Assembly (NCBI GenBank): GCA_034190085.1
Contig: JAXHTS010000081.1
Coordinates: 2,541 to 66,540 of the forward strand
Direction: 5' to 3'
DNA from: Spirochaetota bacterium
GTDB taxonomy: Bacteria > Spirochaetota > UBA4802 > JAFGDQ01
Length of the DNA: 64,000 bases
A program made the position numbers and the translations under genes. The stretch's first letter is position 1, and each line of letters begins with the position of its first letter. Below, piece after piece: positions 2,950 to 48,450 of the stretch. The notes below the pieces were generated by a model, which made no database searches, was not told where the DNA came from, and saw nothing but the letters and a program-made list of their open reading frames with translations.

Positions 2950-4182
2950 TTATCTTTTTACCCTTTTTAGATTGCGGTTCATCAATCTCTCTACTCCAGC
3001 TTCATTTTCTGCCTCAACCTGCTGTATTTGCTCATCAGAATAGTTCAATATATCCATTAAGACCTCTTTTGTATGCTGTCCCAAATCTGGAGCCGGCTCC
3101 GGATCTCCCTCCAGCTCATTTTCCATCTTGAATACAGGACCAATGGTTTTATATTTTTGCCCCTTGATCTCCATCTCAATTATCATATTATTATGCTCAA
3201 CCTGAGGATCATTGGCAACCTGTTCATAACTCAGAACAGGCCCTGAGGGTATATCGTTTTCATCCCGAAATATATTTACCCACTCATCGGTGTTCTTCTT
3301 TTTCAGGGCATTGGCAAAATGTTCCCTGAATTCCTCCGCATTGAGAATTCTATTCATCATATTATCGAATTTCGGATCCTTAAACATCCAATCAAGACCC
3401 ACCAACTCTACCAACTTATCCTCGCTTCCAGGTCCAATTGTCATATATCCATCCTTTGTGTCATGAACGCCATAGGTTTGCATCATATGATGTCTTCTCC
3501 CCTGAAGCCCTGGGAGATTGCCGCTGGCAAAATAGTTCTGGAAGAGAACCTTTTGCATGAGTATAAGTGAATCCAGAAGATTAACCTCTGCCTTGACACC
3601 CTTCCCATCTTTATCTCTACTTATTAGCGCAGCTAGGATAGATAGCACAGCAAAGATGCCGCCCATCATATCAGCCATTGCTATGCCGCCTGGGATTACT
3701 GGGGGTCTATCGGGTTCCCCAGAGAGGCTTAGAATTCCGCTGTGACCGCAGGCTATTATATCAAAGGAGGGGTACTTGACGTATGGTCCAGTCGGGCCAT
3801 ATCCAGAGATGTTGCATCTTATAATATTGGGATTGATCTCCTTCAGGGTTTCGAAGTCACTCCCCTGCCTCTTAGGAACATCTGCCCGAAAATTAGAAAA
3901 AACCACATCTGATTTTTTTACCAAGTCATAAAATGCCTTCTTCCCCTTTTCGCTTCCAAGGTCTAATACAATGCCCTTCTTATTCCGATTAAGTGTTAAA
4001 ACATAGTAGTTTATCGGATTTACCTCTTTTTCACCATATCTCAATATATCTCCCAGCGGGGATTCAATTTTTATGATCTCTGCTCCAAGATCTCCTAAAA
4101 GCATAGTTCCAAAGGGTCCAGCATGAGCTTGACTCATGTCGAGAATCCTAATGCCGCACAATGGGCCTTTCGTTATTGCCAT
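2950..4182 (-). CDS. CoA-transferase family III protein (CaiB/BaiF/Frc-like)
   Basis: N-terminal GPLxGIRxLDxSxxxAGPxxxxxLxDLGAEVIKxE motif characteristic of family III CoA-transferases; 410 aa. Confidence 0.8.
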   Translation of the reverse strand: MAITKGPLCGIRILDMSQAHAGPFGTMLLGDLGAEIIKIESPLGDILRYGEKEVNPINYYVLTLNRNKKGIVLDLGSEKGKKAFYDLVKKSDVVFSNFRADVPKRQGSDFETLKEINPNIIRCNISGYGPTGPYVKYPSFDIIACGHSGILSLSGEPDRPPVIPGGIAMADMMGGIFAVLSILAALISRDKDGKGVKAEVNLLDSLILMQKVLFQNYFASGNLPGLQGRRHHMMQTYGVHDTKDGYMTIGPGSEDKLVELVGLDWMFKDPKFDNMMNRILNAEEFREHFANALKKKNTDEWVNIFRDENDIPSGPVLSYEQVANDPQVEHNNMIIEMEIKGQKYKTIGPVFKMENELEGDPEPAPDLGQHTKEVLMDILNYSDEQIQQVEAENEAGVERLMNRNLKRVKR

Positions 4183-7432: not shown

Positions 7433-8851
7433 ATGACAGTAAATAAGGAGTGTGTCAATACCATGGAGAATATCTCAAATAGTGAAATTAAGAATATGTT
7501 TCAGGGAAGGATATGGCCTGTGACATTAAAACTTACAATACCAATAGCAATAAGCAATCTACTAGCATACCTATACCTGATAACAGACACATTCTTCATC
7601 ACACAGATTGACCCCTCATCAACTGCCCTTCTCAGTGGTCCTGCGCTTGTTTTCCCCTTTTTCTTTTTATTTATGTCATTAGGCATAGGCCTCACAGTGG
7701 GGGTAAGTACCCTTATTGCGAGGGGCATCGGGGAAAATAATAAAAGGATAATTGATAATACTGCGGATACAGGGCTCTTCATCTCTTCAATTATTGCATT
7801 CTTTATAATTACCTTCGGATATTCATTTGCACATGAAATCATCCATCTCCTTGCGGGAACAGAATTAACCGTTGATGCTATACAGTATGGGCTTGATTAT
7901 TATTATTATCTGCTTCCGGGTCTTGGGATGATGCTCTTCGCATATGTATTTTTTGGCCTTCTCCAGGGGGAAGGATTAACCAAGAATATTGCCATAGCCT
8001 CAATTATTGCGTTTGTGTCAAATATGATACTCGATCCCCTTCTTATTTTTGGATTTAAAATGGAGGTGGCTGGCGCTGCACTAGCCTCTACAATCTCCTA
8101 TGCCATTGCCGGGGTATATGTGATTCAGCTTTTCATTACAAAAAAATCATGCGTTCCTATTCATTGGAATCTATTTAAAACTAGAAAAACAATTATATAC
8201 CATATTATTCGTATTGGATTTCCTGAATCCCTCAGCATGCTCTCTATGTCCATCACATTTATCTTTCTGAATAATATAGTAAGCTCAATTGATGAAGTGG
8301 CTATGAACTCCTGGTCTCTTTGCAGCAGAACTGATCAAATATTGCTTATCCCGGCGATAGCTGTATCTTCTTCCACTATCACAATGATCGGACAGAATTA
8401 TGGAAGAAAGAATATAAGGAGATTGATCAATATTTATAAATTTAATGTTATGTTTGCCTTATCTATTGTATTATTCCTGGCCTTTGTCTACAATTTAGCT
8501 GCTCGTCCATTATTCGGTTTTTTTACAACGGTTCAGGAGGTAATTGAGGGGGCTGTTTTACAGATAAGATATATTTCATTTACCTATATCGGCATCTCCA
8601 CTATCGCTATATCCGGAGCCACCTTTCAAGCCACAGGAAGGCCCCTGCCGGCCCTCTTAATACGATTGATCCAAATAGGACTAATTACAATACCCCTGGC
8701 ATTCTTATCAGTAAAATTTTTGCAGATGGGAATGGTTGGCATCTTCATAAGCATCGCCACAGGGCATATGCTTTTATTGATTATATCGTGGTTTTGGACA
8801 GATCTACATTTAAAAAATTTAGAACACAGAACTTTGGATTATTTGGATTAA
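7433..8851 (+). CDS. MATE family efflux transporter
   Basis: About 12 predicted TM segments, MATE-like N-terminus (LTIPIAISNLLAYLYLITDTFFI) and the internal-duplication pattern. The true start is possibly ATG 7463, which has an AAGGAG upstream. Confidence 0.8.
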   Translation: MTVNKECVNTMENISNSEIKNMFQGRIWPVTLKLTIPIAISNLLAYLYLITDTFFITQIDPSSTALLSGPALVFPFFFLFMSLGIGLTVGVSTLIARGIGENNKRIIDNTADTGLFISSIIAFFIITFGYSFAHEIIHLLAGTELTVDAIQYGLDYYYYLLPGLGMMLFAYVFFGLLQGEGLTKNIAIASIIAFVSNMILDPLLIFGFKMEVAGAALASTISYAIAGVYVIQLFITKKSCVPIHWNLFKTRKTIIYHIIRIGFPESLSMLSMSITFIFLNNIVSSIDEVAMNSWSLCSRTDQILLIPAIAVSSSTITMIGQNYGRKNIRRLINIYKFNVMFALSIVLFLAFVYNLAARPLFGFFTTVQEVIEGAVLQIRYISFTYIGISTIAISGATFQATGRPLPALLIRLIQIGLITIPLAFLSVKFLQMGMVGIFISIATGHMLLLIISWFWTDLHLKNLEHRTLDYLD

Positions 8852-8897: not shown

Positions 8898-9164
8898 TTA
8901 AGTCTTTATTCTCAGATTGAATGCCCTTCTATTTGTGCTCCTCCTGTTTGAATTTCTTCTATCAAGTTTGTCTTTATTATCTGTCTCATATCTATTTTTA
9001 TGAACTCTCCGCTCTGATCTTCTCCTCTCTGAAATTCTTCTGTCAAAAACCCCGCCATTGAATTTGGAATATCGAAGCAGAATTAAAAAAATTATTATTA
9101 TTACAACTTCAATTGTTATAAACACAAAAAAATCCATATTATAGAAAAATAGATTATTATCCAT
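8898..9164 (-). CDS. small membrane protein with an Arg/Ser-rich basic cytoplasmic tail
   Basis: One TM helix, then RRISERRRSERR...DRRNSNRRSTNRR. No recognisable family. Confidence 0.35.
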   Translation of the reverse strand: MDNNLFFYNMDFFVFITIEVVIIIIFLILLRYSKFNGGVFDRRISERRRSERRVHKNRYETDNKDKLDRRNSNRRSTNRRAFNLRIKT

Positions 9165-9300: not shown

Positions 9301-10218
9301 CTAGGATACGGAGTGTATGATTTTCCCAGATTCACTGAAATCGTAATTGCCAAGGGGCTTAACGATTTTTCTGAATTCCTCTGTTTTAAGGGTGTCAATG
9401 AATGCCTGTAGGCCCTTTAGGAAAAATGTTTCTTGCGAAAGAACCATATCAAAGCTTTCCCGTACTAAAGGAACAAAGGGCAGGCCGAATAGATTTGATA
9501 TAGCTACAGTCGCAATGCCAATATTTGCCTCGCCTGACAACACAGCGAGTCCCACTTCAAAGTGTGTATGTACCACACGCTCATAGCCATTTATCAGATG
9601 GGGATCAATATCCGTCCGCTGCAAATGATAATCGAGCAGCACTCGGGTGCCTGATCCCTCCTGTCGATTGACAAACTCCACGCCCTTAGCTGTGAGATCA
9701 CTAAATTCGGTTACATTTAATTTTGCCTGTGGAGAGAGGATAAAACCGAGTTCTCTATAGAAAAGATGCACCACTGCGACCTTCATATCCTGAATATAAT
9801 CTGCTAAATATGGAATGTTGTAATCGCCGGTTTTGGGATCTAGCAGGTGACACCAGGCAACGTCAATTTTCCTTTCGCCCAGCATACATAGACCCTTGGT
9901 GCTTCCAATACTACAGGTGAATATGTAAAAACCAGGATGAGACTGTTTCATATAGCTCAAAAGAATATCAAGGATCGGATCATTGCTACCGGCAGACATT
10001 ATGTATCCCTCAGGGGTTTTAGTCTTTCCCTCTGTGCCTGTTGTCCCATGTTGGGCATGTGATGTGATCCATTCATCGATAATGTGCTTTGGAAATATCC
10101 ATTTGCCTGTAATGCGTGTGCAGGGGATTCTGCCGGACTTTATTAGCGAATAAACCTGTTTCTCGTGAATTCCGAGATACTCCGCCACTTCCTTTGTGTT
10201 CATCATATCCTTGGGCAT
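9301..10218 (-). CDS. transcriptional regulator: excisionase/MerR-type HTH (HTH_17) fused to a periplasmic-binding-protein-like oxyanion-binding domain (TunR/ModE-like architecture)
   Basis: N-terminus MNTKEVAEYLGIHEKQVYSLIKSGRIPCTRITGKWIFPKHIIDEW is a typical HTH_17. The C-terminal ~230 aa have PBP-like alpha/beta character, as in the PBP_like (pfam12727) molybdate/tungstate-responsive regulators. Divergently oriented to the cytochrome gene. Confidence 0.7.
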   Translation of the reverse strand: MPKDMMNTKEVAEYLGIHEKQVYSLIKSGRIPCTRITGKWIFPKHIIDEWITSHAQHGTTGTEGKTKTPEGYIMSAGSNDPILDILLSYMKQSHPGFYIFTCSIGSTKGLCMLGERKIDVAWCHLLDPKTGDYNIPYLADYIQDMKVAVVHLFYRELGFILSPQAKLNVTEFSDLTAKGVEFVNRQEGSGTRVLLDYHLQRTDIDPHLINGYERVVHTHFEVGLAVLSGEANIGIATVAISNLFGLPFVPLVRESFDMVLSQETFFLKGLQAFIDTLKTEEFRKIVKPLGNYDFSESGKIIHSVS

Positions 10219-10399
10219 GGATTCCCCTCCATCATTTTCTATAAGGGATATGGATAATTTTCAATAACTAATTTGATAAATTACATAAATTTCGCATACC
10301 TATTTGTAGTTTATACCCAGTCATATAGAACAATCGTCCGCTTTAATCGCCCTTTTTGCGTGAAATACTACAATATATAGTTAATTATTACATTTTATT

Positions 10400-10425
10400 A
10401 CAATAAATTACTTTTATTGTTGACA
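10400..10425 (+). promoter_or_regulatory. candidate operator palindrome (ACAATAAA-N5-TTTATTGT) overlapping a TTGACA -35-like hexamer upstream of the cytochrome gene
   Basis: Seen directly: acaataaattacttttattgt at 10400-10420 is followed by ttgaca at 10420-10425. The -10 is weak, and the RBS AGGAGGA sits 8 nt before the ATG at 10482. Confidence 0.25.
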
Positions 10426-10481
10426 TGCTAGTAACCGCTTTTTTCATGGAAAAAACTATTAAAGATTAGGAGGAATCCGTT

Positions 10482-11696
10482 ATGCTAAATAAATTAAATA
10501 ATCCTATGGTCATCCTTTACATTGTTCTGATCGCCTTCTGCGCATGTTCAGATGATAGCAGCTCTAATAGCTTTGTCCCAACGGAAATTGTCTCATCACG
10601 GGCATATTCAGGCCATGAAAGTGATGTGGATGCTAACAATTTTGTGAAAACATATCCCTCCACAGTTGGCAAACGACTCGATGATTGCCAGACATGCCAT
10701 TCCGGGGGAAGGATTACCTATGCGGATAGCGGAAAGACAAAGAATATCGATAATCCCTGTTCTTATTGCCATCTAAAGGCATTTGAAGAGGGGAGTGACT
10801 TCACATCCGGGTACCCTTCAACCTATGAGTCTACCCTTAATCCCTATGGCCTTGCTTATAATAATGCGGGCAGAAATCAGGAAGCACTGCAAGCTATCGC
10901 TGATCAGGATTCTGATAGTGATACATATTCAAATGCGGAAGAGATTGAGGACTTGCGTTTTCCCGGGGATGCCGACAGTTATCCTGGTCAGCCCCTTGCT
11001 CCCACAATAGAGCTTTACTGGGATGATGTTACCGCAATGAATAAACATGAACAGTTTATGCTGCTTAACGCTCATAAACAGCAATATGATGATTATGTAA
11101 CCTACAAAGGGGTAACAATCCTGGATCTAATCGCTGCGGCGGGCATTGATTTATCAGGCGCTACTGGCATGACCTTCTTTGCTCCTGATGGTTATCAGAA
11201 GGATTTTGATCTGGATGAGGATATCAATTACAGTTATCCCAGGGGCATATATTATTCAGTCCCCAGTTGGCCCGATGATCCTGAGAGGAATCTCATCAAT
11301 TATCCTGATATAATCCCGGATGGGCTAGCCCATGGCAGCGAGATCCCTGATGAGTTATATATGATTCTTGCTTATGAACGCGATGATGGCTATCTGGATG
11401 AATCCTACTACGATAGCACAGACGGGAGAATAGGCGGAGAGGGCCCCTATCGAATTGTGCGTCCCCAGGAATCGGCCGGAAGACCGGATCGTGGCTCAAG
11501 AGCCAATACATATGGCGATGGATGGGACTATGACGATAACATTGATCATAATGCAGGCGATGCTGTTAAGGGCACTTGTGTAATTCGCATTGATCCTATG
11601 CCCGATGGGTATGAGGAATATGATTGGATAAACGGATGGTCCTTGATTATGGATAAAAAACTTATTGTTTATGGCCAAGGGGTAACGGAAAAATAG
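10482..11696 (+). CDS. diheme c-type cytochrome lipoprotein with a C-terminal domain resembling the sulfite-oxidase-family (Oxidored_molyb / YedY-MsrP-like) fold
   Basis: Signal peptide plus Cys (LIAFCACS). Two CxxCH heme motifs (CQTCH, CSYCH) about 25 aa apart. Downstream are the pattern YKGVTILDLIAAAGIDLSGATGMTFFAPDGYQ ... ELYMILAYERDDGYL...GGEGPYRIVRPQ ... KGTCVIRIDP, which parallels the WxGVxLxDLL...F.A.DGY / LAY.mNGe.L...GgPxRLvvP blocks of Moco-domain proteins. The usual Mo-ligating Cys upstream of the WxGV block is absent. Confidence 0.6.
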   Translation: MLNKLNNPMVILYIVLIAFCACSDDSSSNSFVPTEIVSSRAYSGHESDVDANNFVKTYPSTVGKRLDDCQTCHSGGRITYADSGKTKNIDNPCSYCHLKAFEEGSDFTSGYPSTYESTLNPYGLAYNNAGRNQEALQAIADQDSDSDTYSNAEEIEDLRFPGDADSYPGQPLAPTIELYWDDVTAMNKHEQFMLLNAHKQQYDDYVTYKGVTILDLIAAAGIDLSGATGMTFFAPDGYQKDFDLDEDINYSYPRGIYYSVPSWPDDPERNLINYPDIIPDGLAHGSEIPDELYMILAYERDDGYLDESYYDSTDGRIGGEGPYRIVRPQESAGRPDRGSRANTYGDGWDYDDNIDHNAGDAVKGTCVIRIDPMPDGYEEYDWINGWSLIMDKKLIVYGQGVTEK

Positions 11697-11735: not shown

Positions 11736-12971
11736 ATGGCTTTGAGAAGTTTATTGATTCTATTGGTGTTATTTTTTTGCTATCCCCTAAAGGCGCAGAA
11801 TAACCCTGCGTCTATTTATATCAATGGAGGAATCAATAATCCCGAAATCCCTGATAAGATTAAGGATGATCCTCTTTATACCTTTAATGTGCATATTGGA
11901 GGTTATCTTCAGTTATGGTATATCTATGAAGGGGTGGAGAATGGGAAGCGGCAGCGTTTAACAAATGATGAGGCTGCACAGCAGGCATCGGGGTTCAGCT
12001 TTAATAGGGCAAGGGTATATATTGAGAATATTGATGGCAAACTTAGGGGCAAGATATCAGCAAAGCTTGAAAGCGGCACCCCATCAATGCTGGATGCCTA
12101 TGTACATTATTTATTGATAAAGGATAATCTTCAACTCCGGGCCGGGCAGATGAAGATACCATCAACCTATGAGGTTGAAACCAGCAGCTCAAATCTTGAA
12201 TTTGCTACACGAAGCCGCTTTACCGACAATGTGGCCAACTGGTCATTATCAAAGAGCACATCGAGCATCTCCCCCTTTACCAGCGTCCAAACCTATTATA
12301 GGGATTTGGGTGTGGCTATTAGGGGAAATCTTTACGGATTCACATATCACTGTATGATATCAAATGGGCTTGGGGCAAATCTTTTTGTAGGGGGCAATGA
12401 GAGCAGGCAATTTGTATACACTAACACCTTTGGAGCATATTTTTTCGGGACGAGGCTATCATGGGATATTATGAGGCTTTTTCATCTGGTAGATTTCCCA
12501 GTATCATCATTTCGCCTTGGGGGGCATAGAAATCGGAACAGACACCCGAATATACTCTATAATGACACAAAGACGGTTCTTGATATAGATCGGGAATCCT
12601 GGTCCTCTGACATACAGATAATCATCTTTAATCGAATCAGACTCACTGGCATGTATGGGAAAGGGGTTGTTGAGGATGACTTTGACAACAATAATGAGCC
12701 GGATTATAGGTATCACGGCTATGAACTCAGGGTTATTGTTGAGATACTGAAGGATCGTCTTGAAGCTGGATTTAGATTCGATTCCTACACTGATGAAAAC
12801 TCTATCTTTGGCGGGGAAGAGACTATGAAGACCTATACCCTTGGGATTAACTACTATATCCCTCCTGGTCTAAGGATGCAGCCCAATTATAAATGGAAAA
12901 GGCTTGAGGGTGAACTCAATATTGAGACCAATGATGATATCTTCATCCTTTCAGCGCAATATGAATTTTGA
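11736..12971 (+). CDS. outer-membrane beta-barrel porin-like protein
   Basis: Signal peptide (cleavage after LKA), alternating amphipathic beta-strand pattern, C-terminal ...ILSAQYEF with a terminal Phe typical of OMPs; 411 aa. Lies 40 bp downstream of the cytochrome gene. Confidence 0.55.
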   Translation: MALRSLLILLVLFFCYPLKAQNNPASIYINGGINNPEIPDKIKDDPLYTFNVHIGGYLQLWYIYEGVENGKRQRLTNDEAAQQASGFSFNRARVYIENIDGKLRGKISAKLESGTPSMLDAYVHYLLIKDNLQLRAGQMKIPSTYEVETSSSNLEFATRSRFTDNVANWSLSKSTSSISPFTSVQTYYRDLGVAIRGNLYGFTYHCMISNGLGANLFVGGNESRQFVYTNTFGAYFFGTRLSWDIMRLFHLVDFPVSSFRLGGHRNRNRHPNILYNDTKTVLDIDRESWSSDIQIIIFNRIRLTGMYGKGVVEDDFDNNNEPDYRYHGYELRVIVEILKDRLEAGFRFDSYTDENSIFGGEETMKTYTLGINYYIPPGLRMQPNYKWKRLEGELNIETNDDIFILSAQYEF

Positions 12972-12983
12972 TCGAATTGGCAA

Positions 12984-13673
12984 TTATCTTTTCATTGAGG
13001 CAAGTCCATTATTAAGAGTTTTTCTCTTCTCCTTGAGCCTCTTTATATGATCATCAATAATCCTGCGATAATTTAATTCTCCCTTAATAATGGAATACCT
13101 CTCTGACTCAATGAATCCCAGGTCTGTTGTTATCCTGATGTTGCTGGCCTTCTCCGCATATCCTTTGGCTTTATTCCAATAGCCTATAGCCTTCCTGTAC
13201 AGCCCTTCAGCAATGTCAAGGCTCTCCCTGATCTCCTTAGCAAAATCGAGGTTGTAGAAATAGATTCGTCTTTTGTCATATCTTGACGCTATTCTTAGAT
13301 AATTTCTCATTATGAGAATGTTTATATGCATAAACATGAGCCTTCGGTATTTGAGATATTCATCCTTTGTCTCAATCTTAATTAGAGCCTCTGAAGGATG
13401 CCTAAATCTGCATTCTAGGGCCCTCTTCAATCTTTCAATATTCTTTCTTAGCGAGTTTTCATTATAATACTGTTTCTTTCCATAAAGCTGGTAATAATCC
13501 TCCAGGTAGTGCGGCACAGTTTTATAGTGGAGCCTAACCTTTGGTATATAGTCAGAAAATGGTGTGTATTCCTTCTTTTCTTTGAAATACTGATACTGAT
13601 AATCCTCTGCATCTAATTGCGGGGCACACAGATGCACAATAAGAATGATCTGTAGAACAAGGCATTTTTTCAT
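12984..13673 (-). CDS. secreted basic Tyr-rich hypothetical protein
   Basis: N-terminal signal peptide (MKKCLVLQIILIVHLCAP); no recognisable domain. Confidence 0.45.
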   Translation of the reverse strand: MKKCLVLQIILIVHLCAPQLDAEDYQYQYFKEKKEYTPFSDYIPKVRLHYKTVPHYLEDYYQLYGKKQYYNENSLRKNIERLKRALECRFRHPSEALIKIETKDEYLKYRRLMFMHINILIMRNYLRIASRYDKRRIYFYNLDFAKEIRESLDIAEGLYRKAIGYWNKAKGYAEKASNIRITTDLGFIESERYSIIKGELNYRRIIDDHIKRLKEKRKTLNNGLASMKR

Positions 13674-27144: not shown

Positions 27145-27229
27145 TGCCCAAGGCCGGACTTGAACCGGCACGGATATTAAATCCGAGGGATTTTAAGTCC
27201 CTTGTGTCTACCAATTCCACCACTTGGGC
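27145..27229 (-). tRNA. tRNA-Leu (anticodon UAA), type II with long variable arm
   Basis: The 85-nt sequence folds by hand into a cloverleaf: acceptor GCCCAAG/CTTGGGC, anticodon stem AGGGA/TCCCT with loop CTTAAAA, variable stem-loop CGGAT...ATCCG, T-arm GCCGG TTCAAGT CCGGC, discriminator A. Confidence 0.9.
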
Positions 27230-27444: not shown

Positions 27445-27517
27445 AGGCGCCGAGCGGATTCGAACCGCTGGATAAAGGTTTTGCAGACCTCTCCCTTAGC
27501 CACTTGGGTACGGCGCC
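27445..27517 (-). tRNA. tRNA-Cys (anticodon GCA)
   Basis: 73-nt cloverleaf: acceptor GGCGCCG/CGGCGCC, anticodon loop CTGCAAA, T-arm AGCGG TTCGAAT CCGCT, discriminator U (a Cys identity element). Confidence 0.9.
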
Positions 27518-33803: not shown

Positions 33804-35303
33804 ATGGAGACAATTCATTCTGCGACTCCACTATTCGCGCAACTAACTTCTCTGATTGGTGCATTCCTGGTTTTGTTTACAGGTGAGAAGAGACCTAATC
33901 TCCGTGAAACTTGGACTATTATAGCTTCTGTAGTTAAATTTGTGCTTTTGTTTTCAATAATATCTCATGTCATCGATGGTAACATTATTGAATTCACGCT
34001 AGTGGAGGTCTGTAAAGGGGTATCCCTTCAGTTTAGGATAGATGCTTTTGGGGCTATATTTGCTTTGCTCGCTTCCTTTCTATGGATTGTGGTTTCGATT
34101 TACTCTATTGGATACATGCGGGGATTGAAGGAGCATGCTCAAACTCGTTTTTATTTTTGTTTTGCTCTTGCAATTTTTAGCGCAACTGGCATAGCTATGG
34201 CAGGAAATCTATTAACCCTTTATATGTTTTATGAGATATTGACTGTCGCCACATTCTTGCTTGTAGCTCATAAGGAGACACCGGACGCGATCAAGTCTGG
34301 TAGAAAGTACCTTACTTACTTATTGTCAGGTGCGGCTTTAGTTCTTTTTTCCATGGGAATGACCTACCATCTTACAGGAACTCTAGATTTTATTCCAGGT
34401 GGATTTATTGGTGGGCATGGGTCTAATGCCCTTTTGAGTCTGGTCTTTGTATTGTTTATCATTGGATTTGGCACCAAGGCTGCCATAATGCCTTTTCATG
34501 AATGGCTTCCTTCGGCAATGGTGGCGCCTACCCCTGTAAGCGCATTGCTTCACGCTGTTGCAGTTGTAAAGGCTGGGGTTTTCTGCTGTCTTAGAATAAT
34601 CCTTTATGTTTATGGGCCGGATTTGCTGACAGACTTAGGACTATGGACAATATTAGCTATCTTTGTTTCTATTACTGTGATTGTTGCCAACTTCTTTGCT
34701 TTAACACAGGATCATTTGAAAAGGAGGTTGGCTTTTTCAACAATCAATAATCTTTCTTTAATTATTTTAGGCGCTGCTTTGATCTCTTCTGATGGGATCA
34801 AAGGGGCAATGCTTCATATCCCATTTCATGGATTTATGAAAATTACACTATTTATGTGTGCCGGAGCGATTCTTGTTAAAACACATAAAGAGAATATCAG
34901 TGAAATTGATGGCATAGGGAGGCAGATGCCCATAACAATGGCCGCTTTTACTATCGGCGCGGCAGGTCTGACAGGGCTGCCGCCTGTATGTGGATTGATT
35001 AGCAAGTGGTATCTATGCCTTGGGGCTTTGCAAGCCAATGCGATAATATTTTTATGTGTATTCCTCTTGAGTGCGATACTGGACGCGGCTTACTTCTTTC
35101 CTATAGTGTACAGTGCCTTTTTTAAGAAAGCTGCAAATGATATTAAATCGCATTTTGATGAGGCGCCTATATTTGCTGTGACTGCTATTGTGATTACAGC
35201 GGTTTTCTCGGTGCTTCTATTCCTGTTCCCTGATTTGATATTCAATTTTTACTCAATAGTTGGATTGGCAGTTGAATCCATAGTTTCTGGAGGAGGATTG
35301 TGA
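33804..35303 (+). CDS. Mrp/NuoN-family antiporter-like large subunit (MrpD-like, paralog 1)
   Basis: 499 aa, ~14 TM helices, conserved HAxxKAxxF/charged-Lys TM blocks of the NuoL/M/N-MrpA/D family. Confidence 0.8.
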   Translation: METIHSATPLFAQLTSLIGAFLVLFTGEKRPNLRETWTIIASVVKFVLLFSIISHVIDGNIIEFTLVEVCKGVSLQFRIDAFGAIFALLASFLWIVVSIYSIGYMRGLKEHAQTRFYFCFALAIFSATGIAMAGNLLTLYMFYEILTVATFLLVAHKETPDAIKSGRKYLTYLLSGAALVLFSMGMTYHLTGTLDFIPGGFIGGHGSNALLSLVFVLFIIGFGTKAAIMPFHEWLPSAMVAPTPVSALLHAVAVVKAGVFCCLRIILYVYGPDLLTDLGLWTILAIFVSITVIVANFFALTQDHLKRRLAFSTINNLSLIILGAALISSDGIKGAMLHIPFHGFMKITLFMCAGAILVKTHKENISEIDGIGRQMPITMAAFTIGAAGLTGLPPVCGLISKWYLCLGALQANAIIFLCVFLLSAILDAAYFFPIVYSAFFKKAANDIKSHFDEAPIFAVTAIVITAVFSVLLFLFPDLIFNFYSIVGLAVESIVSGGGL

Positions 35304-35518
35304 TGTTTAAGCTATTTAAATGGATATTTTATCTTTCAATTGCTATATGCTGCCTTTTGGGTTTTTATTTTCGTGCAGAACATCCCCACTTTTTTTGGCA
35401 GAAAATACCTGTCTACGATGCGGTTATGGGATTTGTTGGTTGTATAATAATTGTCATAGTGTCAAAAGCACTAGGTCACAACTGGTTACAGAAAGAGGAA
35501 GACTATTATGATAAATAA
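35300..35518 (+). CDS. small 2-TM membrane protein
   Basis: GGAGGAGGA RBS 4-7 nt upstream of the GTG/ATG start at 35300/35303; two hydrophobic helices. The overlapping 35320-35511 frame is rejected. Confidence 0.45.
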   Translation: MMFKLFKWIFYLSIAICCLLGFYFRAEHPHFFWQKIPVYDAVMGFVGCIIIVIVSKALGHNWLQKEEDYYDK

Positions 35519-37259
35519 TAACCTAGTACATCCAGCTCTAATATTTATTATTGGGGCTATTCTGCTTCCATTTCTTAAATGGAGAATCCTTAAGCAGTTG
35601 ATTGTGTTGCTTATTCCTGCTTTTGCTTTTATGATGATCTATCATATGCCAGAGGGTGTGTATTGGTGCTTTGATTTTTTAAACTATACCCTTGTATTTG
35701 GCAGGGTTGATAAACTTAGTCTCGTCTTTGGGTATATATTTGTGATTATGGCCTTTTTGGGTATGGTATATGCCATCAAGATTGAAGAATATGGTCAACA
35801 TGTAGCCGCATTAACATATATCGGAGGCACTTTAGGGGTAGTGTTCGCTGGTGATTTCTTCACTCTCTTTGTTTTTTGGGAATTGATGGCAATATCATCG
35901 GTTTTCTTGGTATGGTATGCTCGAAATGAGAGAGCATTAAAGGCTGGTTTTAGGTATTTGATGGTCCATCTTGTCGGGGGATGTGTTCTTCTTGCAGGTA
36001 TAATCATCGTAGTATCGGATACAGGCACAATTGCCTTTAGTAACATCGAGTTCGAGGGCTTAGGCCCAATACTCATACTTATCGGATTTATATTAAATGC
36101 AGCGGTACCTCCTCTTAGTGCATGGTTACCGGATGCATATCCAGAAGCTACTGTCACAGGCAGTGTATTCATGACGGCCTTCACAACCAAGAGCGCTGTC
36201 TATATTTTAGCTAGGACATTCCCTGGGGTTGAGATACTGGTTTGGTTAGGAGCCATTATGGCCCTTTATGGTGTTGTGTTTGCTGTTCTTGAAAACGATA
36301 TCAGAAGGTTGTTGGCATACCATATTATTAGCCAGGTGGGCTATATGGTGTGTGGTGTAGGTTTAGGTAGTGAGATGGCCATTAATGGTGCAAGTGCGCA
36401 TGCCTTTTGCCATATCTTATATAAGGCTCTCCTCTTTATGGGAGCTGGAGCTGTAATTCATGTAACAGGTAAGAATAAGATGACCGAACTTCAGGGAAGG
36501 GGTCTGTATAAGAGTATGCCGATTACCTTGACCCTCTATATGGTAGGTGCATTTTCAATCTCCGCTGTTCCCTTGTTTAATGGATTTATTAGTAAAACCA
36601 TGGTAGTAGCTGCGGCTGGCGAGTTGCACAGACCAGCTATTGAGTTGATGCTTCATCTCGCATCCGTCGGAACATTTCTTCATACAGGACTAAAGCTACC
36701 GTGGGGTACTTGGTTCGGGAAATCTGATAAGCCTGTAGGTGAGCTTAAGGCTGAAGAGCCTCCATTTAATATGCTCTTAGCAATGGGGATTGCTGCATTC
36801 CTATGTGTTTTAACCGGGATTTATCCAAGTGTGCTCTATAATATTTTGCCTTATGAGGTAACTTACCATCCCTACACCGCCTATCACGTGGTTGGAATGC
36901 TTCAGCTTTTGGTTTTAACTGGTGCTGCATTTTGGCTAATGATTGACAAATTGGGCGGAGAGCCTACGGTGAGCATGGATACAGATTGGTTTTATCGCAA
37001 GGGTGGTGAACAATTTATGCGGTTCTGCGAGGGGTTGAGCCTGTTCAGGATCGTTGTTCAAGAGTATGCTAAGCGTTTGGTAAACAGTGCAATTAAACTG
37101 AGTTATAATCCAATATATTATACAAGGTTGATATTCAATAAGAGTGAAACCGAAGTAGTTCATTTTGATGCGAATATCTATCGTAATGCCGTAGGGATCG
37201 GCGTTATGGTTTCACTGGCCCTGTTTTCACTATTCAGTATCATCTTTCTGGTGAGTTAA
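35508..37259 (+). CDS. Mrp/NuoL-family antiporter-like large subunit (MrpA/D-like, paralog 2)
   Basis: 583 aa; GASAHAFCHILYKALLFMGAGAVIH block typical of NuoL/MrpA/MrpD. Confidence 0.8.
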   Translation: MINNNLVHPALIFIIGAILLPFLKWRILKQLIVLLIPAFAFMMIYHMPEGVYWCFDFLNYTLVFGRVDKLSLVFGYIFVIMAFLGMVYAIKIEEYGQHVAALTYIGGTLGVVFAGDFFTLFVFWELMAISSVFLVWYARNERALKAGFRYLMVHLVGGCVLLAGIIIVVSDTGTIAFSNIEFEGLGPILILIGFILNAAVPPLSAWLPDAYPEATVTGSVFMTAFTTKSAVYILARTFPGVEILVWLGAIMALYGVVFAVLENDIRRLLAYHIISQVGYMVCGVGLGSEMAINGASAHAFCHILYKALLFMGAGAVIHVTGKNKMTELQGRGLYKSMPITLTLYMVGAFSISAVPLFNGFISKTMVVAAAGELHRPAIELMLHLASVGTFLHTGLKLPWGTWFGKSDKPVGELKAEEPPFNMLLAMGIAAFLCVLTGIYPSVLYNILPYEVTYHPYTAYHVVGMLQLLVLTGAAFWLMIDKLGGEPTVSMDTDWFYRKGGEQFMRFCEGLSLFRIVVQEYAKRLVNSAIKLSYNPIYYTRLIFNKSETEVVHFDANIYRNAVGIGVMVSLALFSLFSIIFLVS

Positions 37260-37436
37260 GTGAAGTCGTTATGGTGTTCGGAGGTCATGATGGAAGGATT
37301 ATATTATTATTACTACAATGAAATGTTTTGCTTGACCTTTCCCAATTGTTTAAATAGAGCTGCAAAAGAAGTAATAGTGTTTATATAGGTCTATGGGCTT
37401 GTATAGCGTTAAGATTTTATAAGATAAGGAAGTAAG

Positions 37437-37919
37437 ATGGCATTTACAGTTACGTTTATAATTTTATTGATTTTTTGGATATTAGTATCTGGTTTATTTG
37501 ACTACTGGCATTTTACGTTGGGAATAATATCATGTGCGTTGGTTGCATATATGTCAAGCAGTGTATTGTTTAAGAATAATAAAGTAAGGGGAAAGTCCTT
37601 CACGGAAGTATTACGATTATTAACATATTTGCCTTGGCTCTTGTACCAGATAATTTTGGCGAATCTACAAATTGCCTATTTAGCATTGCACCCAAGGATG
37701 CGGGAGCTTATAGACCCACACATAATAAAGTTTAGAACGAAACTTAAAAAAGATTTATCCCTTGTACTCTTTGCCAATTCGATAACACTAACTCCTGGTA
37801 CAATTACAGTACTTATTGAGGATGATCAATATTATGTTCATGCCATAAACAAATCTATTGCTGCAGATTTGCCAGGCAAGATGGAAGAAAAGGTAGCTCA
37901 GGTATTTTTGGAGGATTAG
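37437..37919 (+). CDS. mrpE: Na+/H+ antiporter subunit E (MrpE/MnhE; MbhA-like)
   Basis: 160 aa; LTPGTITVLIEDD motif. Confidence 0.75.
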   Translation: MAFTVTFIILLIFWILVSGLFDYWHFTLGIISCALVAYMSSSVLFKNNKVRGKSFTEVLRLLTYLPWLLYQIILANLQIAYLALHPRMRELIDPHIIKFRTKLKKDLSLVLFANSITLTPGTITVLIEDDQYYVHAINKSIAADLPGKMEEKVAQVFLED

Positions 37920-38186
37920 ATGGAGAATTTCTCTTTAATTATTGCGTTAGCAATAGGTTTTTTAATGATGTTAAGTATATACAGGGCGGTTTTTGGGCCT
38001 ACCATATTTGACAGAATAATCGGTTCCGGATTCATTGGCACCAAGACTATCATCCTTCTTGTTCTTATTGGATTTATCTATAATAGAATAGATATGTTTA
38101 TTGATTTAGCCATAGTATACTCAATCTTAAGCTTTACTGGAACCTTGTTATTTGCCAAGTACTTTGTGAGAAAAGGAGACAAGTAG
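37920..38186 (+). CDS. mrpF: antiporter subunit F (MrpF/MnhF; MbhB-like)
   Basis: 88-aa 3-TM protein immediately following mrpE (adjacent coordinates). Confidence 0.7.
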   Translation: MENFSLIIALAIGFLMMLSIYRAVFGPTIFDRIIGSGFIGTKTIILLVLIGFIYNRIDMFIDLAIVYSILSFTGTLLFAKYFVRKGDK

Positions 38187-38540
38187 ATGGTTATAGCGTC
38201 AAAGATTTTGATTGTGTCAGGTCTGTTTTTTCTGACTACTGGTGTAATAGGTTTTTTACGGTTTCCGGATTTTTATAGCAGAATGCACGCAACCGGGAAG
38301 GGGGATACTTTAGGGGCATTGCTTATTCTACTGGGATTTGCCCTGTATAATCTTCATCATGGATTTGTATGGCTTGATATCGTTCAAAGTGTTAAGCTTA
38401 TATTAATAGCAGTCTTCTGGATTATCGCTAGTCCTACGGCCACACATGCTCTGCTTAGATCCACATTCGAGTCAGGTGTTCAGCCGTGGACAAAGGATGG
38501 GAAGACTGTAATAGATTGGCCATTAAAAGAGGAGAAATAA
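38187..38540 (+). CDS. mrpG: antiporter subunit G (MrpG/MnhG; MbhC-like)
   Basis: FYSRMHATGKGDTLGALL motif. Confidence 0.75.
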   Translation: MVIASKILIVSGLFFLTTGVIGFLRFPDFYSRMHATGKGDTLGALLILLGFALYNLHHGFVWLDIVQSVKLILIAVFWIIASPTATHALLRSTFESGVQPWTKDGKTVIDWPLKEEK

Positions 38541-38786
38541 ATGATTTGGCAATTAGATATTATTCTCTTAATATTTGCAGCGATTGTAGCCATTGCTGCC
38601 ATAAATGTTAAAGATTTATTGGCTTCTGTTGCGCTCCTTAGCGCATTCAGCCTTTTCATGTGTCTAATATGGACGGAGATGGGGGCTGTGGATGTGGCAT
38701 TTACTGAAGCTACTGTAGGTGCTGGAGTAAGTACTGCATTTTTTATTGTTGCGGTATATAACACAACTAGGAGGTCAAAAGATTGA
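38541..38786 (+). CDS. MrpB N-terminal-domain protein (DUF4040; MbhD-like)
   Basis: 81-aa 3-TM protein in the position and with the character of MbhD. Confidence 0.55.
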   Translation: MIWQLDIILLIFAAIVAIAAINVKDLLASVALLSAFSLFMCLIWTEMGAVDVAFTEATVGAGVSTAFFIVAVYNTTRRSKD

Positions 38787-39055
38787 GGAAGCTACTATCC
38801 ATCATTATTATTCTTATAGCTGGGGGGGTGCTTGTATACGGAGTAAATGATTTCCCCAAATGGGCAGATCCAGATCAACCAGCCAGTACTCATGTTTCAC
38901 CAAAATATATTGAAGAGATTTATGAGAAGACAGCTGTCCCCAATATGGTAACTGCGGTTCTTGCTGACTATAGAGGCTATGACACCATGTTTGAGACCGC
39001 AGTTATATTTACAGCTGGCATTGCAGTTGTAATGTTATTAAGGAGAAGGTCATAA
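38783..39055 (+). CDS. MrpB/MnhB-like small subunit (MbhE-like)
   Basis: VTAVLADYRGYDTMFE block typical of MnhB. Confidence 0.6.
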   Translation: MRKLLSIIIILIAGGVLVYGVNDFPKWADPDQPASTHVSPKYIEEIYEKTAVPNMVTAVLADYRGYDTMFETAVIFTAGIAVVMLLRRRS

Positions 39056-39056
39056 A

Positions 39057-39515
39057 ATGATTAGAAAATATGATAACATTATAATCCAGACAGTTGGCAG
39101 GATTATGATACCATTTATGCAGGTTTACAGCCTTTATGTGTTGGTTCATGGGCATGGAAGTCCTGGCGGAGGTTTTCAGGGAGGTTGTATCCTGGCTGCA
39201 AGCTTTATCCTAATGGCGGTAGCCTATGATATAGAGGAGATAAACAGACGCTTTAAGGAGAGGAGGGTTCTACTTCTTTGCAGCCTGGGTGTTTTTCTTT
39301 ATGTCGGAACTGGTTTTCTGTGTATGTTTTGTGGTGGTAATTTTTTAGATTATGGCTTTCTTAGTAAGATTTTGCCAACGGATGAGATTATGGCGAGGTA
39401 CTATGGGATGGCGATAATAGAGACTGGTGTACAGATTACGGTTATGGCTGTGATGGTCACTATATTTCTTGATTTAGCAACAAGTGGAAAACATGAGGGT
39501 ATGTTAAAGGAATAG
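39057..39515 (+). CDS. mrpB: MrpB/MnhB subunit (MbhF-like)
   Basis: GHGSPGGGFQGG motif typical of MnhB. Confidence 0.7.
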   Translation: MIRKYDNIIIQTVGRIMIPFMQVYSLYVLVHGHGSPGGGFQGGCILAASFILMAVAYDIEEINRRFKERRVLLLCSLGVFLYVGTGFLCMFCGGNFLDYGFLSKILPTDEIMARYYGMAIIETGVQITVMAVMVTIFLDLATSGKHEGMLKE

Positions 39516-39519
39516 GATT

Positions 39520-39897
39520 ATGGAATATATTATAGGTAAAATTAATTATTGGATCTATATAGTTCTAATACTTACCGGTTTTTTTGCCATGATGGCAAAG
39601 GGCAATCTTATGAAGAAGCTGATTGGTATGAATATCTTTCAATGGTCAATAATTCTCTTTTTTGTCTCCATCGGAGCGAAGAAGGGTGCTACTGTGCCTG
39701 TTCTTGGCGGACATGGCGCTGTGCATGATGTTATTCATGCGGTAGATTACATAAATCCATTGCCCCATGTTCTTATGCTTACTGCTATTGTAGTTGGTGT
39801 GGCAACAACTGGAATTGCATTGACACTGCTAATTGTGCTGTATAAGAAGTATGGTACCTTAGAAGAAAATGAAATAATTGAGGAGTTGAAAAGATGA
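39520..39897 (+). CDS. mrpC: antiporter subunit C (MrpC/MnhC, NuoK-like; MbhG-like)
   Basis: 125-aa 3-TM protein, NuoK-like. Confidence 0.75.
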   Translation: MEYIIGKINYWIYIVLILTGFFAMMAKGNLMKKLIGMNIFQWSIILFFVSIGAKKGATVPVLGGHGAVHDVIHAVDYINPLPHVLMLTAIVVGVATTGIALTLLIVLYKKYGTLEENEIIEELKR

Positions 39898-41411
39898 TTA
39901 TGGAACAATTGCCAGCACTTATCGTTGTCACTCCTTTAATTCTTGCTTTTATTGTTCCTATTGTAGGATGGTGGAATAAGAAGTGGTGTTATCCAATAGT
40001 GTTTATTTCGCTTTTAATTAGTTTCTTATCCTCAATTGGCATTATCCATACTGTCATCACTGAGGATCAGCCGATTCACTATTACATGGGTGGTTGGCCA
40101 CCTCCCTGGGGTATTGAATATGTTATTGATTATTTAAATGCACTTGTGCTAGTGTGCGTTGCTTTTGTTTCCTGGGTAGTTTCCCTTTATGCGAAGAGGT
40201 CTGTTGAGAAGGAACTTCCCGAATCAAAGGTGCCTTTATTCTATACACTCCTGTTGCTGCAGGTGGCAGGTCTGTTAGGGATTTGCGCAACCGGCGATAT
40301 GTTTAATCTCTATGTGCTTTTAGAGATTGCCTCTTTTGCAGCATATGCAATTATAGCAATGGGAGAGCGGGGTTCTGTCTTTGCCTCTTTTCGGTATGTG
40401 ATCTATGGTACAATCGGAGCCTGCCTCTATCTCATCGGAGTGGGGTATCTATATATTAGTACTGGTTCTCTTAATATGGCGGATTTATCTCAAATTTTGC
40501 CTGAGTTAATAAATTCTAAAGCAATATTAGTTGGATTTGCTTTTTTCTTGGTGGGTGTTGCGATAAAAATGGGTATTTTCCCCCTTCATTCATGGTTGCC
40601 GGATGCATATACCCTAGCTCCATCTGCTGTAAGTTCATTGCTTGCTCCATTATTTACCAAGGTCGGTGCATATGTTATTATCAGATTGATGTTTACTGTG
40701 TTTGAGCCTTCATTTTCAATAGATGATTACCCGGTGACAGAAGTATTGGGTTGGATATCAGCAATTGGAATAATTTTTGCCGGAGTAATGGCACTTTCTC
40801 AGACTGATTTGAAACGGATGTTTTCATATTTGATTGTAGCGGAGATGGGTTATATAGTGATTGGTATCGCTTCAGCAAACAGGCTAGGATTAACCGGTTC
40901 CATACTTCATATCGTCAATGATATATTTATGATGACATGCTTGTTTACTGCAGTTGGTGCAATCTATTATCAGACAGGTACCAGAAATATCTATGAACTT
41001 AAGTGTTTGCATCGAAAAATGCCTATTACCCTGGCTGTCTTTGTAGTTGGGGCTTTGTCAGTTGTTGGGGTTCCCCCTTTCTGTGGCTTCTTTAGTAAAT
41101 GGTATTTGATACTGGGCACGATTCAATCAAAGGAATGGATGCTTTTAACAGTGCTACTAATTAGCAGTTTAATCAATGCGGTTCTTTTCTTCCGTGTGCT
41201 TGAAAATGCCTATATTGAACCACGTGAAGAGGAAGATCATGCTCATCATCATGATGAAGTACATCATAGTGTTGTTGCTTTAGATGAAGTGCCTATGAGT
41301 ATGCTTATGCCAATGATAGTAATTGCTGTTGGTATTATTCTTCTTGGAATTTTTAGTGGAAATATTGTTAATAATATAATTGATTTTGCCATACCTTCAT
41401 CATTATTATAA
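39894..41411 (+). CDS. mrpD: antiporter-like large subunit (MrpD / MbhH-like, paralog 3) with His-rich C-terminal tail
   Basis: 505 aa; NuoM/N-family blocks; C-terminus EPREEEDHAHHHDEVHH. Confidence 0.8.
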   Translation: MIMEQLPALIVVTPLILAFIVPIVGWWNKKWCYPIVFISLLISFLSSIGIIHTVITEDQPIHYYMGGWPPPWGIEYVIDYLNALVLVCVAFVSWVVSLYAKRSVEKELPESKVPLFYTLLLLQVAGLLGICATGDMFNLYVLLEIASFAAYAIIAMGERGSVFASFRYVIYGTIGACLYLIGVGYLYISTGSLNMADLSQILPELINSKAILVGFAFFLVGVAIKMGIFPLHSWLPDAYTLAPSAVSSLLAPLFTKVGAYVIIRLMFTVFEPSFSIDDYPVTEVLGWISAIGIIFAGVMALSQTDLKRMFSYLIVAEMGYIVIGIASANRLGLTGSILHIVNDIFMMTCLFTAVGAIYYQTGTRNIYELKCLHRKMPITLAVFVVGALSVVGVPPFCGFFSKWYLILGTIQSKEWMLLTVLLISSLINAVLFFRVLENAYIEPREEEDHAHHHDEVHHSVVALDEVPMSMLMPMIVIAVGIILLGIFSGNIVNNIIDFAIPSSLL

Positions 41412-42942: not shown

Positions 42943-42983
42943 GTGAGTTTTAAATTATAATAATTTGATTACAGGAGGAATAG

Positions 42984-43211
42984 ATGGAAGGTTTAGGTCT
43001 ATCTTACTTTGCAGCGGGTATTGGTGCGGGCTTAATAGTGCTTGGCGCTTCGTTTGGAATTGGAAAATTAGCAAGTACAGCTCTGGAGAGTACAGCCCGT
43101 CAACCAGAGAGTAGTGGTGATATTAGAACAACAATGATTATTGCTGCTGCATTAATAGAGGGTTTTACTTTTTTTGCTTTGGTTGTAACATTTATGTTAG
43201 CTACTAAATAG
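42984..43211 (+). CDS. atpE: F0F1 ATP synthase subunit c (H+-type)
   Basis: 75-aa hairpin with the ARQPE loop and a carboxylate in AALIEGFTFFAL. No Q/S-T/Y Na+-binding constellation. Confidence 0.9.
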   Translation: MEGLGLSYFAAGIGAGLIVLGASFGIGKLASTALESTARQPESSGDIRTTMIIAAALIEGFTFFALVVTFMLATK

Positions 43212-43275
43212 TATGCTTTAGTAGCGAGGGCTTTTACCAATGAAGTCCATAAATTGAAAATATGGATAGTGAAAT

Positions 43276-43794: not shown

Positions 43795-43997
43795 TTGCTT
43801 ATTTATAGGAGAACGCGTAATAAATTATTATCAAGTTCCGCATAAAAGATTGTGAGCATTTATTAGAATGAGTATACAGAAGTAAGGAATTTGGCACTAT
43901 TTAATGTGTATAGTAGAGAAATATAGTTATTAACGAATAAACTCCCACAAGTTTGGGAGTAAATAATAATTAAATCACTAATTATAGGGATAGTAGT

Positions 43998-46095
<2,098 letters not shown>

Positions 46096-46125
46096 TCGTA
46101 GAAATGAATAGAAAGGATTGAGGTT

Positions 46126-47013: not shown

Positions 47014-48450
<1,437 letters not shown>

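Follow-up and report, generated by a model that had tools for sequence, protein, structure and literature searches.

The window analysed here, a stretch of 64,000 nucleotides from a Spirochaetota bacterium (contig JAXHTS010000081.1), encodes on its forward strand, at 10482..11696, a GEGP motif-containing diheme protein of 404 aa (hereafter GEGP) in which two c-type heme attachment motifs are joined to a domain of the sulfite oxidase (SUOX) fold, devoid of the canonical molybdenum-ligating cysteine and, across the family, of any conserved cysteine outside the heme motifs. The gene is paired with one for an outer-membrane porin, here and in related loci; here and in relatives it is linked to control elements of tungsten and molybdenum metabolism, and in relatives also to tupABC. 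As the explanation that best accommodates these features we tentatively propose, at somewhat less than an even chance, that GEGP is an accessory for the acquisition of tungsten (possibly molybdenum), in which a pocket free of molybdenum cofactor (Moco) and two hemes would act together with an anion porin.

The ATG start codon of the open reading frame (ORF) lies behind an AGGAGG at 10468-10473. The product matches NCBIfam NF041762 with 449.3 bits (cut-off 300; E=1e-134) over residues 41-400, and it is 100% identical to an NCBI entry from a Spirochaetota metagenome-assembled genome (MAG) named GEGP motif-containing diheme protein. The family is already catalogued under NF041762, with a purely descriptive name and no function assigned there. 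A full-text literature search on the GEGP motif returned no paper, and a Pfam scan of the window protein gave nothing significant. An exhaustive representative search of a 50%-identity library rendered 139 clusters at E<1e-30 and 443 at E<1e-10, with lineages that include Spirochaetota, Acidobacteriota/Aminicenantes, Myxococcota, Desulfobacterota, Planctomycetota and monoderm lineages, and probably also Bacteroidota, to judge from a variant with a T9SS sorting domain. Homologs were studied in a 41-sequence alignment, a set of 120 close homologs and a set of 60 full-length cluster representatives, whereas gene contexts were counted by tblastn in 80 species-representative genome loci, all from MAGs.

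Two heme motifs and a SUOX-fold domain without the molybdenum cysteine

The two CxxCH motifs pointed out in the initial annotation are present (10686..10772) as C69QTCH73 (10686-10700) and C93SYCH97 (10758-10772), and exactly two such motifs occur in 120 of the 120 close homologs. Standing invariant behind a signal peptide, they identify GEGP by sequence as a c-type cytochrome, with heme binding predicted. H45 (nt 10614-10616), which is invariant in the 41-sequence alignment and kept in 57 of the 60 cluster representatives, is a candidate distal heme ligand. The signal peptide (10482..10547), MLNKLNNPMVILYIVLIAFCAC followed by SDDSSS, comprises a hydrophobic stretch before a Ser/Asp-rich linker, ends at Cys20/Cys22 without a twin-arginine, and is probably of the lipoprotein type. 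A lipobox was found in 12 of the 13 readable porin-linked homologs (11 called by script, with L016, which has VYGC, added by eye). The Aminicenantes forms read as plain Sec signals, the lipobox called by the script in 2 out of 20 of them being taken as false positives. Among the 120 homologs a lipobox occurs in at least 28 and a loose RR pattern in only 7, and no conserved twin-arginine was found in the signals of the GEGP homologs.

Behind the hemes lies a DxDxD...N..E loop of the calcium-binding type (D143-E154; 10908..10943), similar to bacterial TSP3 repeats, in which D143, D145, D147, N151 and E154 are invariant; of the 41 members, 14 are matched by Pfam TSP3_bac and 34 by Temptin_C. In a GEGP subfamily of 440-760 aa the whole GEGP module is followed by SLH, CWB2, T9SS sorting or CarboxypepD_reg domains or by EPTP repeats, and the extensions of the SLH/CWB2/T9SS type point to display at the cell surface in other lineages. 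Two monoderm-type loci (L091:1327-6796 and L092:1976-7276) share a cassette in which a riboswitch is followed, in one operon, by resB and resC (for cytochrome c maturation by system II), a Big_5/fn3 protein of ~425 aa that matches no NCBIfam model, and GEGP, which is fused there to CWB2 or SLH anchors.

The C-terminal domain (residues 170-404; 10989..11693), modelled mostly with pLDDT >90, has the SUOX-family fold that had been proposed in the initial annotation from the order of its sequence blocks. These blocks, YKGVTILDLIAAAG (208-221), FFAPDGYQ (232-239), LAYERDDGYL (296-305), GEGPYRIVRPQ (319-329) and KGTCVIRI (363-370), do occur in that order. The AlphaFold2 model, for which 41 homologs were used, has a mean pLDDT of 82, with most blocks >90, and its confidence is high from residue ~110 up to the C-terminus; the heme segment is poorly modelled, as is to be expected when heme is left out. 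The best 36 Foldseek matches in the PDB are all of the SUOX fold, and unrelated folds appear only at E>1. PruR structures (7kos, 7kom, 7rkb and 7kp2; E from 1.5e-3, probability 1.0) rank at the top, followed at E 0.02-0.4 by YedY/MsrP and by the Thermus, chicken and SorT sulfite oxidases/dehydrogenases; the Mo domain of one yeast assimilatory nitrate reductase is also among the 36. At the profile level, the GEGP family found PruR 7kom among PDB sequences (E=0.0036), and its hhalign comparison with a 25-sequence PruR alignment gave 96.7% (E=3.7e-10) over GEGP residues 170-330. An unrelated fold, which would have refuted the initial annotation, was thus indicated neither by the AlphaFold2 model with Foldseek nor by hhalign. 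Pfam Oxidored_molyb (PF00174), which is often matched by members of the PruR family, gave weak matches in 7 of the 41 members (best E 0.0079) and no match at E<=1 to the window protein. The hhalign comparison of the family with the single E. coli MsrP sequence gave nothing, and MsrP was not aligned by a HMMER profile of the C-terminal domain; because both failed, residues were mapped on MsrP by an ungapped alignment by eye, and the tool-based residue mapping of GEGP rests on PruR. That GEGP proteins have the SUOX fold is apparently a new finding.

SUOX enzymes carry the Mo-ligating cysteine at the end of a long beta-hairpin (PMC11194511). The tip of the equivalent hairpin of GEGP (residues 189-212; 11046..11117) is N196-Q201 (NAHKQQ; nt 11067-11084), without cysteine; in close homologs it reads N196-[KTA]-[TSN]-[KTS]-[QE]-[QRP], and the wider family keeps only N196 and a basic residue (K/R) at 199. 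The absence of a cysteine before the YKGV block, which had been noticed in the window protein, extends over residues 186-207 and to the 120 homologs, and no alignment column holds a conserved non-heme cysteine, the four heme cysteines being the only invariant ones in the 41 sequences. C366, in KGTCVIRI, was weighed as a possible hidden ligand for Mo and discarded, since a cysteine is found there in 97 of the 120 close homologs and in 3 of the 60 cluster representatives. In the alignment by eye the cysteine of E. coli MsrP falls at GEGP position 198. In PruR the hairpin is truncated and the cysteine replaced by the Trp of a PW motif (PMC11194511); the hairpin of GEGP is 4 residues longer than that of PruR, the PW motif aligning with the variable Q200/Q201.

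PruR sandwiches a pterin between a Tyr and a Trp, with a hydrogen bond from an Asn (PMC11194511). Its pterin-contacting A-L-N-D-Y aligns with A-P-D-G-Y 234-238 of GEGP (11181..11195), in which D236 and G237 never vary and an aromatic residue always occupies position 238, against N-x-Y in PruR. The motif that names the family, GEGPYRIVRPQ 319-329 (11436..11468), is equivalent to DKGPFWLIYPQ of PruR according to hhalign and to NGAPVRLIVPW of MsrP in the alignment by eye. An insertion of ~30 residues relative to SUOX enzymes and PruR (11484..11558; pLDDT about 90) conserves P335-D336-R337, D346-G-W348 and D355-H356-N357-A-G, residues that are presumed to shape the pocket or to face the hemes. W348, aromatic in 49 of the 60 cluster representatives, is only a candidate for the counterpart of the C-terminal Trp of PruR, whose region falls outside the hhalign alignment. 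With two aromatics, Asp/Asn and Arg/Lys, the predicted pocket could accommodate a pterin-phosphate and an oxyanion equally well.

It could be the case that GEGP binds free pterin in the manner of PruR (excreted pterin, cyclic pyranopterin monophosphate or molybdopterin) for salvage or redox cycling, its hemes reducing or oxidising the bound pterin and a porin or TonB-dependent receptor passing the anionic pterin. PruR is its nearest relative by fold and by profile, D236-G-aromatic238 and the second aromatic at 348 are conserved, Acidobacteriota loci hold TonB receptors together with cofactor-type ABC importers, and genes of Moco biosynthesis often lie nearby. On the other hand, neither the PW motif nor the C-terminal Trp of PruR has an aligned counterpart in GEGP, no PruA/FolX-type or DcpA-type genes were found in the annotated neighbourhoods, and the commonest inner-membrane partner is an oxyanion transporter of the TupA type rather than a cofactor importer, so that we regard a pterin binder as quite improbable. 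A signalling role like that of PruR was also set aside, as no conserved signalling partner is adjacent: the downstream gene is not of the DcpA type but encodes the porin, here and in 17 + 25 related loci.

The main argument for a domain that is Moco-free in the usual sense is the export route. The known periplasmic SUOX enzymes get their Moco in the cytoplasm and use Tat, the signal of E. coli MsrP, taken as a control, showing RRQVLK, whereas a protein whose c hemes are attached outside the cytoplasm crosses the membrane in unfolded form. The Sec or lipoprotein signals, c hemes and surface anchors of GEGP proteins are hard to reconcile with the insertion of Moco in the cytoplasm, which argues against an enzyme loaded there. 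Of the two alternatives considered in the initial annotation, a Moco-independent derivative of the fold is accordingly favoured over a divergent Mo/W enzyme. The latter would be a genuine extracytoplasmic redox enzyme, with an exported pyranopterin, or tungstate or molybdate held directly by a ligand other than Cys, and hemes that carry the electrons; the porin would supply an anionic substrate, while the metal would be delivered and sensed through tupABC and the regulators. GEGP retains all four SUOX motif blocks, the hairpin is full-length rather than truncated as in PruR (PMC11194511), D-G-aromatic is conserved where PruR has its pterin-contacting N-x-Y, and genes of Moco biosynthesis and of XdhC-type maturation are found as neighbours. 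Nevertheless, the hairpin tip holds neither a Cys nor another invariant ligand; Sec/lipoprotein signals, c hemes and cell-wall/T9SS anchors imply unfolded export, unlike that of the SUOX enzymes; the window protein does not reach Pfam Oxidored_molyb; and the closest relatives are the non-enzymatic PruR proteins. A further point against an enzyme of this kind is that we know of no Moco exporter, and on balance we consider it unlikely.

A porin partner and linkage to tungsten and molybdenum genes

The porin gene (11736..12971, forward strand) starts 39 nt downstream of GEGP, with which it is predicted to be co-transcribed. It encodes an outer-membrane beta-barrel with a signal peptide and a C-terminal Phe, a distant relative of OprP/OprO that matches Pfam Porin_O_P (PF07396) with 42.5 bits (gathering 20.9; E 6.7e-11); against the PDB its profile found OprP (2o4v) as the best match, at E=0.0035, and then OprO. 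A homolog stands directly downstream of GEGP on the same strand in 17 of the 80 genome loci, which belong to Spirochaetota, Leptospirales, Planctomycetota, Myxococcota and Desulfobacterota. A reciprocal search of metagenome contigs for the porin alone, made with a closer 8-sequence set because the 17-sequence alignment was too diverse, rendered 29 loci, 26 of them with enough upstream DNA, and GEGP was immediately upstream in 25 of these 26. In diderms, Acidobacteriota excepted, GEGP and the porin are near-obligate partners, a pairing that is apparently new. More generally, an outer-membrane channel or a surface anchor accompanies GEGP in the porin-type, Acidobacteriota and monoderm-type loci, and none was found in the Aminicenantes loci or in those without an informative neighbour. 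Regarding other observations around the porin, L103:3323-4360 is the sole porin homolog for which GEGP was not detected although 3.3 kb of upstream DNA is available, and in the window the gene convergent to the porin (12984-13673, reverse strand) encodes a 229-aa signal-peptide protein with no family match.

GEGP might also be a general electron-transfer module, that is, a minimal porin-cytochrome pair or a surface cytochrome that exchanges electrons with the outside of the cell, serving for example as an outlet for electrons from W-dependent AOR/FDH metabolism, in which case the tungsten link would be regulatory only. The two c hemes, the lipoprotein-type or surface anchors and the beta-barrel partner speak for this idea, as do weak MtrC-domain and cytochrome c7 similarities and one locus in which GEGP lies behind a cluster of multiheme cytochrome and cytochrome b genes. 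The barrel is, however, an anion porin of the OprP type of ~400 aa, not an MtrB or porin-cytochrome sheath, the large conserved SUOX-like pocket domain would be left unexplained, and the co-operonic tupABC points to transport. Moreover, under the OFF logic inferred below for the riboswitches, the protein would be made when the W enzymes are inactive. We consider a pure electron-transfer module very unlikely, the least probable of the explanations weighed here.

Five loci carry, directly upstream of the GEGP operon, a Moco riboswitch (Rfam RF01055; 67-74 bits, gathering 36), namely L008 and L054, both Spirochaetes MAGs (the GEGP of L008 shares 57% identity with that of the window), a metagenome contig (L102) and the monoderm-type L091 and L092. 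The P3 stem is absent from all five, and P3-less Moco riboswitches correlate with tungsten-cofactor metabolism (Regulski et al., PMC2408646). In a Myxococcota locus (L073), genes for the regulator, GEGP, the porin, TupA-like and TupB-like proteins and an ABC ATPase lie on one strand. TupA/B-like genes also stand beside the GEGP-porin pair in L074, L105, L109, L111, L112 and L116, and all those checked, L074 excepted, have the TTTS motif. In 34 Aminicenantes-type loci a divergent, riboswitch-led tupABC-moeA-moaC-MOSC-moaA operon lies 0.3-4.5 kb off, which counts as one weak observation because a single lineage is concerned and a Dus gene intervenes. The CWB2 variant is flanked by an XdhC of the AOR-maturation type and a MoCF_biosynth gene, L088 has an AOR gene at a distance of 2.4 kb from GEGP, and moaA is found downstream of the GEGP-porin pair in L054. 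This linkage is physical; to judge from position, the GEGP-porin operon would be regulated as part of a tungsten/molybdenum-cofactor regulon. The finding of GEGP under tungsten-cofactor control elements and in operons with tupABC is apparently new.

Hairpins with U-runs that resemble intrinsic terminators lie behind the aptamers in L091, L092 and L008; such an arrangement has been described for other Moco RNAs, of which the tested example, E. coli moaA, is an OFF switch (PMC2408646). In L054 riboswitches precede the GEGP-porin pair, a gene for a 324-aa shikimate-dehydrogenase-like protein and one for an NAD(P) aldehyde dehydrogenase that is independent of the cofactor and might replace the tungsten-dependent AOR. 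Taken together, the terminator hairpins and this aldehyde dehydrogenase suggest that scarcity of the tungsten cofactor turns on the genes behind these riboswitches, as would suit a role in acquisition. The three P3-less Moco/Tuco riboswitches of L054, a Spirochaetia MAG, lie within 5 kb at 3079-3200 (+), 7828-7951 (-) and 8039-8158 (+), with XdhC, YqeC and YqeB upstream and GntR and MoaA downstream. In L102 (2429-2512) the 3' strand of the riboswitch P1 holds an AGGAG and then an ATG that opens a 27-codon ORF, the real GEGP start being at 2574, where GGAAAGGAGAATG is repeated; the short ORF may encode a leader peptide or reflect duplication of the platform.

In the window itself, the gene divergent from GEGP (9301..10218, reverse strand) encodes the oxyanion-type regulator to which the initial annotation had drawn attention, with HTH_17 (1.6e-14) and PBP_like (PF12727; 1.1e-57) domains, the latter matching the C-terminal domain of the MoeA-fusion PRK14498 at 3.6e-59. 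TunR has an architecture that differs from HTH_17 plus PBP_like. A TunR-like label for this regulator was dropped, HTH_17 plus PBP_like being the architecture of TaoR (PMC11980592) and of the TaoR/TupR family (PMC11980592 and PMC10102598, both citing Rajeev et al. 2019). Regulator homologs of the TaoR/TupR type adjoin GEGP in L068, L073, L074, L076, L081-L083 and L109, and both the family and the tupABC neighbours in L073, L074 and L109 suggest that the regulator would respond to tungstate or molybdate. The hint at Mo/W that had been read from this regulator is strongly borne out by the riboswitches and tupABC of the related loci, although these do not separate an enzyme from an acquisition factor. 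The AT-rich intergenic region (10219..10481) contains, besides the ribosome-binding site of GEGP, a perfect 8-nt inverted repeat, ACAATAAA-N5-TTTATTGT at 10400-10420, just upstream of a TTGACA, and the two form a candidate operator/promoter. No riboswitch was found in the whole window.

Other features of the window are an 88-aa ORF (8898-9164, reverse strand) whose product has a single hydrophobic segment and ends in repeats of the RR/SERR type; two tRNA genes (27145-27229 and 27445-27517, both on the reverse strand); and, at 33804-41411 and 42082-48450, three Proton_antipo_M (Mrp/Nuo-type) membrane subunits and then an F-type ATP synthase operon, with a pyruvate kinase that includes a PEP-utilizers domain, an acetate kinase and a long phosphotransacetylase of the DRTGG type encoded upstream.

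A possible role in tungsten acquisition

If GEGP is an acquisition accessory, it would be a Sec-exported periplasmic protein, probably anchored to the outer membrane by a lipid. The OprP-like porin would admit anionic W/Mo species, to be captured in the Cys-less pocket by the aromatics at 238 and 348 together with D236, N357, N196, K/R199 and R324. The two hemes might then exchange electrons with the bound species or with a carrier, and free tungstate would be handed to a Tup-type ABC importer. Expression would be set by the TaoR/TupR-type, W/Mo-sensing regulator in this bacterium and by riboswitches of the tungsten-cofactor type in its relatives, with repression when the cofactor is plentiful. 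As to the actual ligand and the redox chemistry, any proposal is speculative.

Several observations weigh against acquisition. P3-less riboswitches also precede enzymes that use the tungsten cofactor (PMC2408646), and TaoR-type regulators also control such enzymes, at least in the account of Rajeev et al. 2019 given by PMC11980592 and PMC10102598. Because both elements serve cofactor users too, membership in the regulon cannot separate a supplier from a user, and both elements can be counted in favour of an extracytoplasmic enzyme. The conserved pocket, rich in Asp/Asn and aromatics, fits a planar, pterin-like ligand better than a bare oxyanion. In addition, we know of no precedent for two hemes in oxyanion uptake.

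Some gene contexts also fit acquisition poorly. In the window no mod, tup, moa or moe gene was found among the 35 larger ORFs scanned (about 2/3 of those of at least 120 aa), nor, among the same ORFs, an AOR or cytochrome-maturation gene. Several loci have no W/Mo gene within 10 kb, and the Aminicenantes forms, in which the tup link is a synteny within one lineage with the Dus gene in between, have no adjacent outer-membrane channel. About 10 Acidobacteriota loci pair GEGP with TonB-dependent receptors, and some of these also hold Peripla_BP_2/FecCD/ABC genes that score closest to heme/siderophore importers. The TonB-receptor loci among non-Aminicenantes Acidobacteriota are L018, L019, L023, L034, L035, L040, L042, L045 and L072 (around position 10000 of each), with the receptors sometimes on both sides of GEGP; in L018 and L019 there are DUF2117 proteins upstream. 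In the P0036 locus (JGI 3300075153) GEGP lies behind five multiheme cytochrome genes and a cytochrome b (Ni_hydr_CYTB) fusion; a 429-aa protein with no Pfam match, probably a barrel, is encoded after it.

It can also be the case that GEGP is a new W/Mo redox module assembled outside the cytoplasm, whose pocket, wired to the two c hemes, directly binds a W/Mo species and converts it chemically; we hold this to be doubtful. The species could then be tungstate, a thiotungstate, a form bound to minerals or chelators, or a pterin cofactor that has been exported. Were it true, GEGP would be either a W/Mo enzyme compatible with Sec, the first of its kind, or a mobiliser of tungsten feeding TupABC through a dedicated porin, and a pocket that holds metal would break the rule of cytoplasmic loading for pyranopterin enzymes.

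The described W/Mo uptake systems begin at the periplasmic binding proteins TupA, ModA and WtpA. To our knowledge, the crossing of the outer membrane by tungstate or molybdate and the supply of tungsten at trace or sulfidic conditions are essentially uncharacterised. With three independent marks of a tungsten-cofactor regulon (riboswitch, TaoR-type regulator and tupABC operons) and a dedicated anion porin, the GEGP family offers a concrete candidate for this outer step in supplying tungsten. It is also, after PruR, a second and much larger example of the SUOX fold being reused without molybdenum, joined in this case to c hemes.

Comparison with known systems

The family name, the SUOX fold, the precedent of the Cys-less PruR, TaoR/TupR, the Tuco-type riboswitch and TupABC are already known. 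PruR, a periplasmic protein of Proteobacteria and the best structural and profile match of GEGP, is likewise Sec-secreted and has a SUOX-type fold without the Mo-Cys. It differs in being a single domain of ~150 aa without hemes that acts on DcpA, a c-di-GMP enzyme encoded downstream (PMC11194511), whereas GEGP has ~400 aa, a full-length hairpin with a polar tip, the 30-residue insertion, two c hemes, the Ca loop and a porin partner. The SUOX enzymes YedY/MsrP (1xdq), SorA/SorT (4pw3), that of T. thermophilus (6y0k) and that of chicken (1sox) share fold and block order with GEGP, but have an invariant hairpin Cys, reach the PF00174 threshold and are Tat-exported with pre-loaded Moco. SorAB and SoxCD consist of a SUOX Moco subunit and a separate c-type cytochrome subunit, the two using distinct export routes, Tat and Sec; as in GEGP, a SUOX-type domain is joined with a c-heme electron relay, yet GEGP is one polypeptide of the Sec type without Mo ligand.

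Regarding metal supply, TupABC, TaoR/TupR and the P3-less Moco ('Tuco') riboswitch are elements common to the known tungstate systems and the GEGP-porin loci; we know of no outer-membrane or periplasmic accessory or cytochrome described for tungstate uptake, the literature searches having been aimed at the family name, the regulators and the riboswitch. OprP and OprO of Pseudomonas (2o4v, 4rjx), which share Pfam Porin_O_P with the partner barrel and are very distant from it (E 0.0035), are phosphate-starvation porins without a lipoprotein partner, such as the one the GEGP porin has. EfeUOB is a system of redox-assisted metal uptake, and TbpBA and BtuG-BtuB are pairs of a surface lipoprotein and an outer-membrane channel. 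They bear no sequence or fold relationship to GEGP, and it is only by analogy that they resemble the role proposed here, in which an extracytoplasmic heme protein or lipoprotein would ready or capture a scarce metal species for a dedicated channel or transporter.

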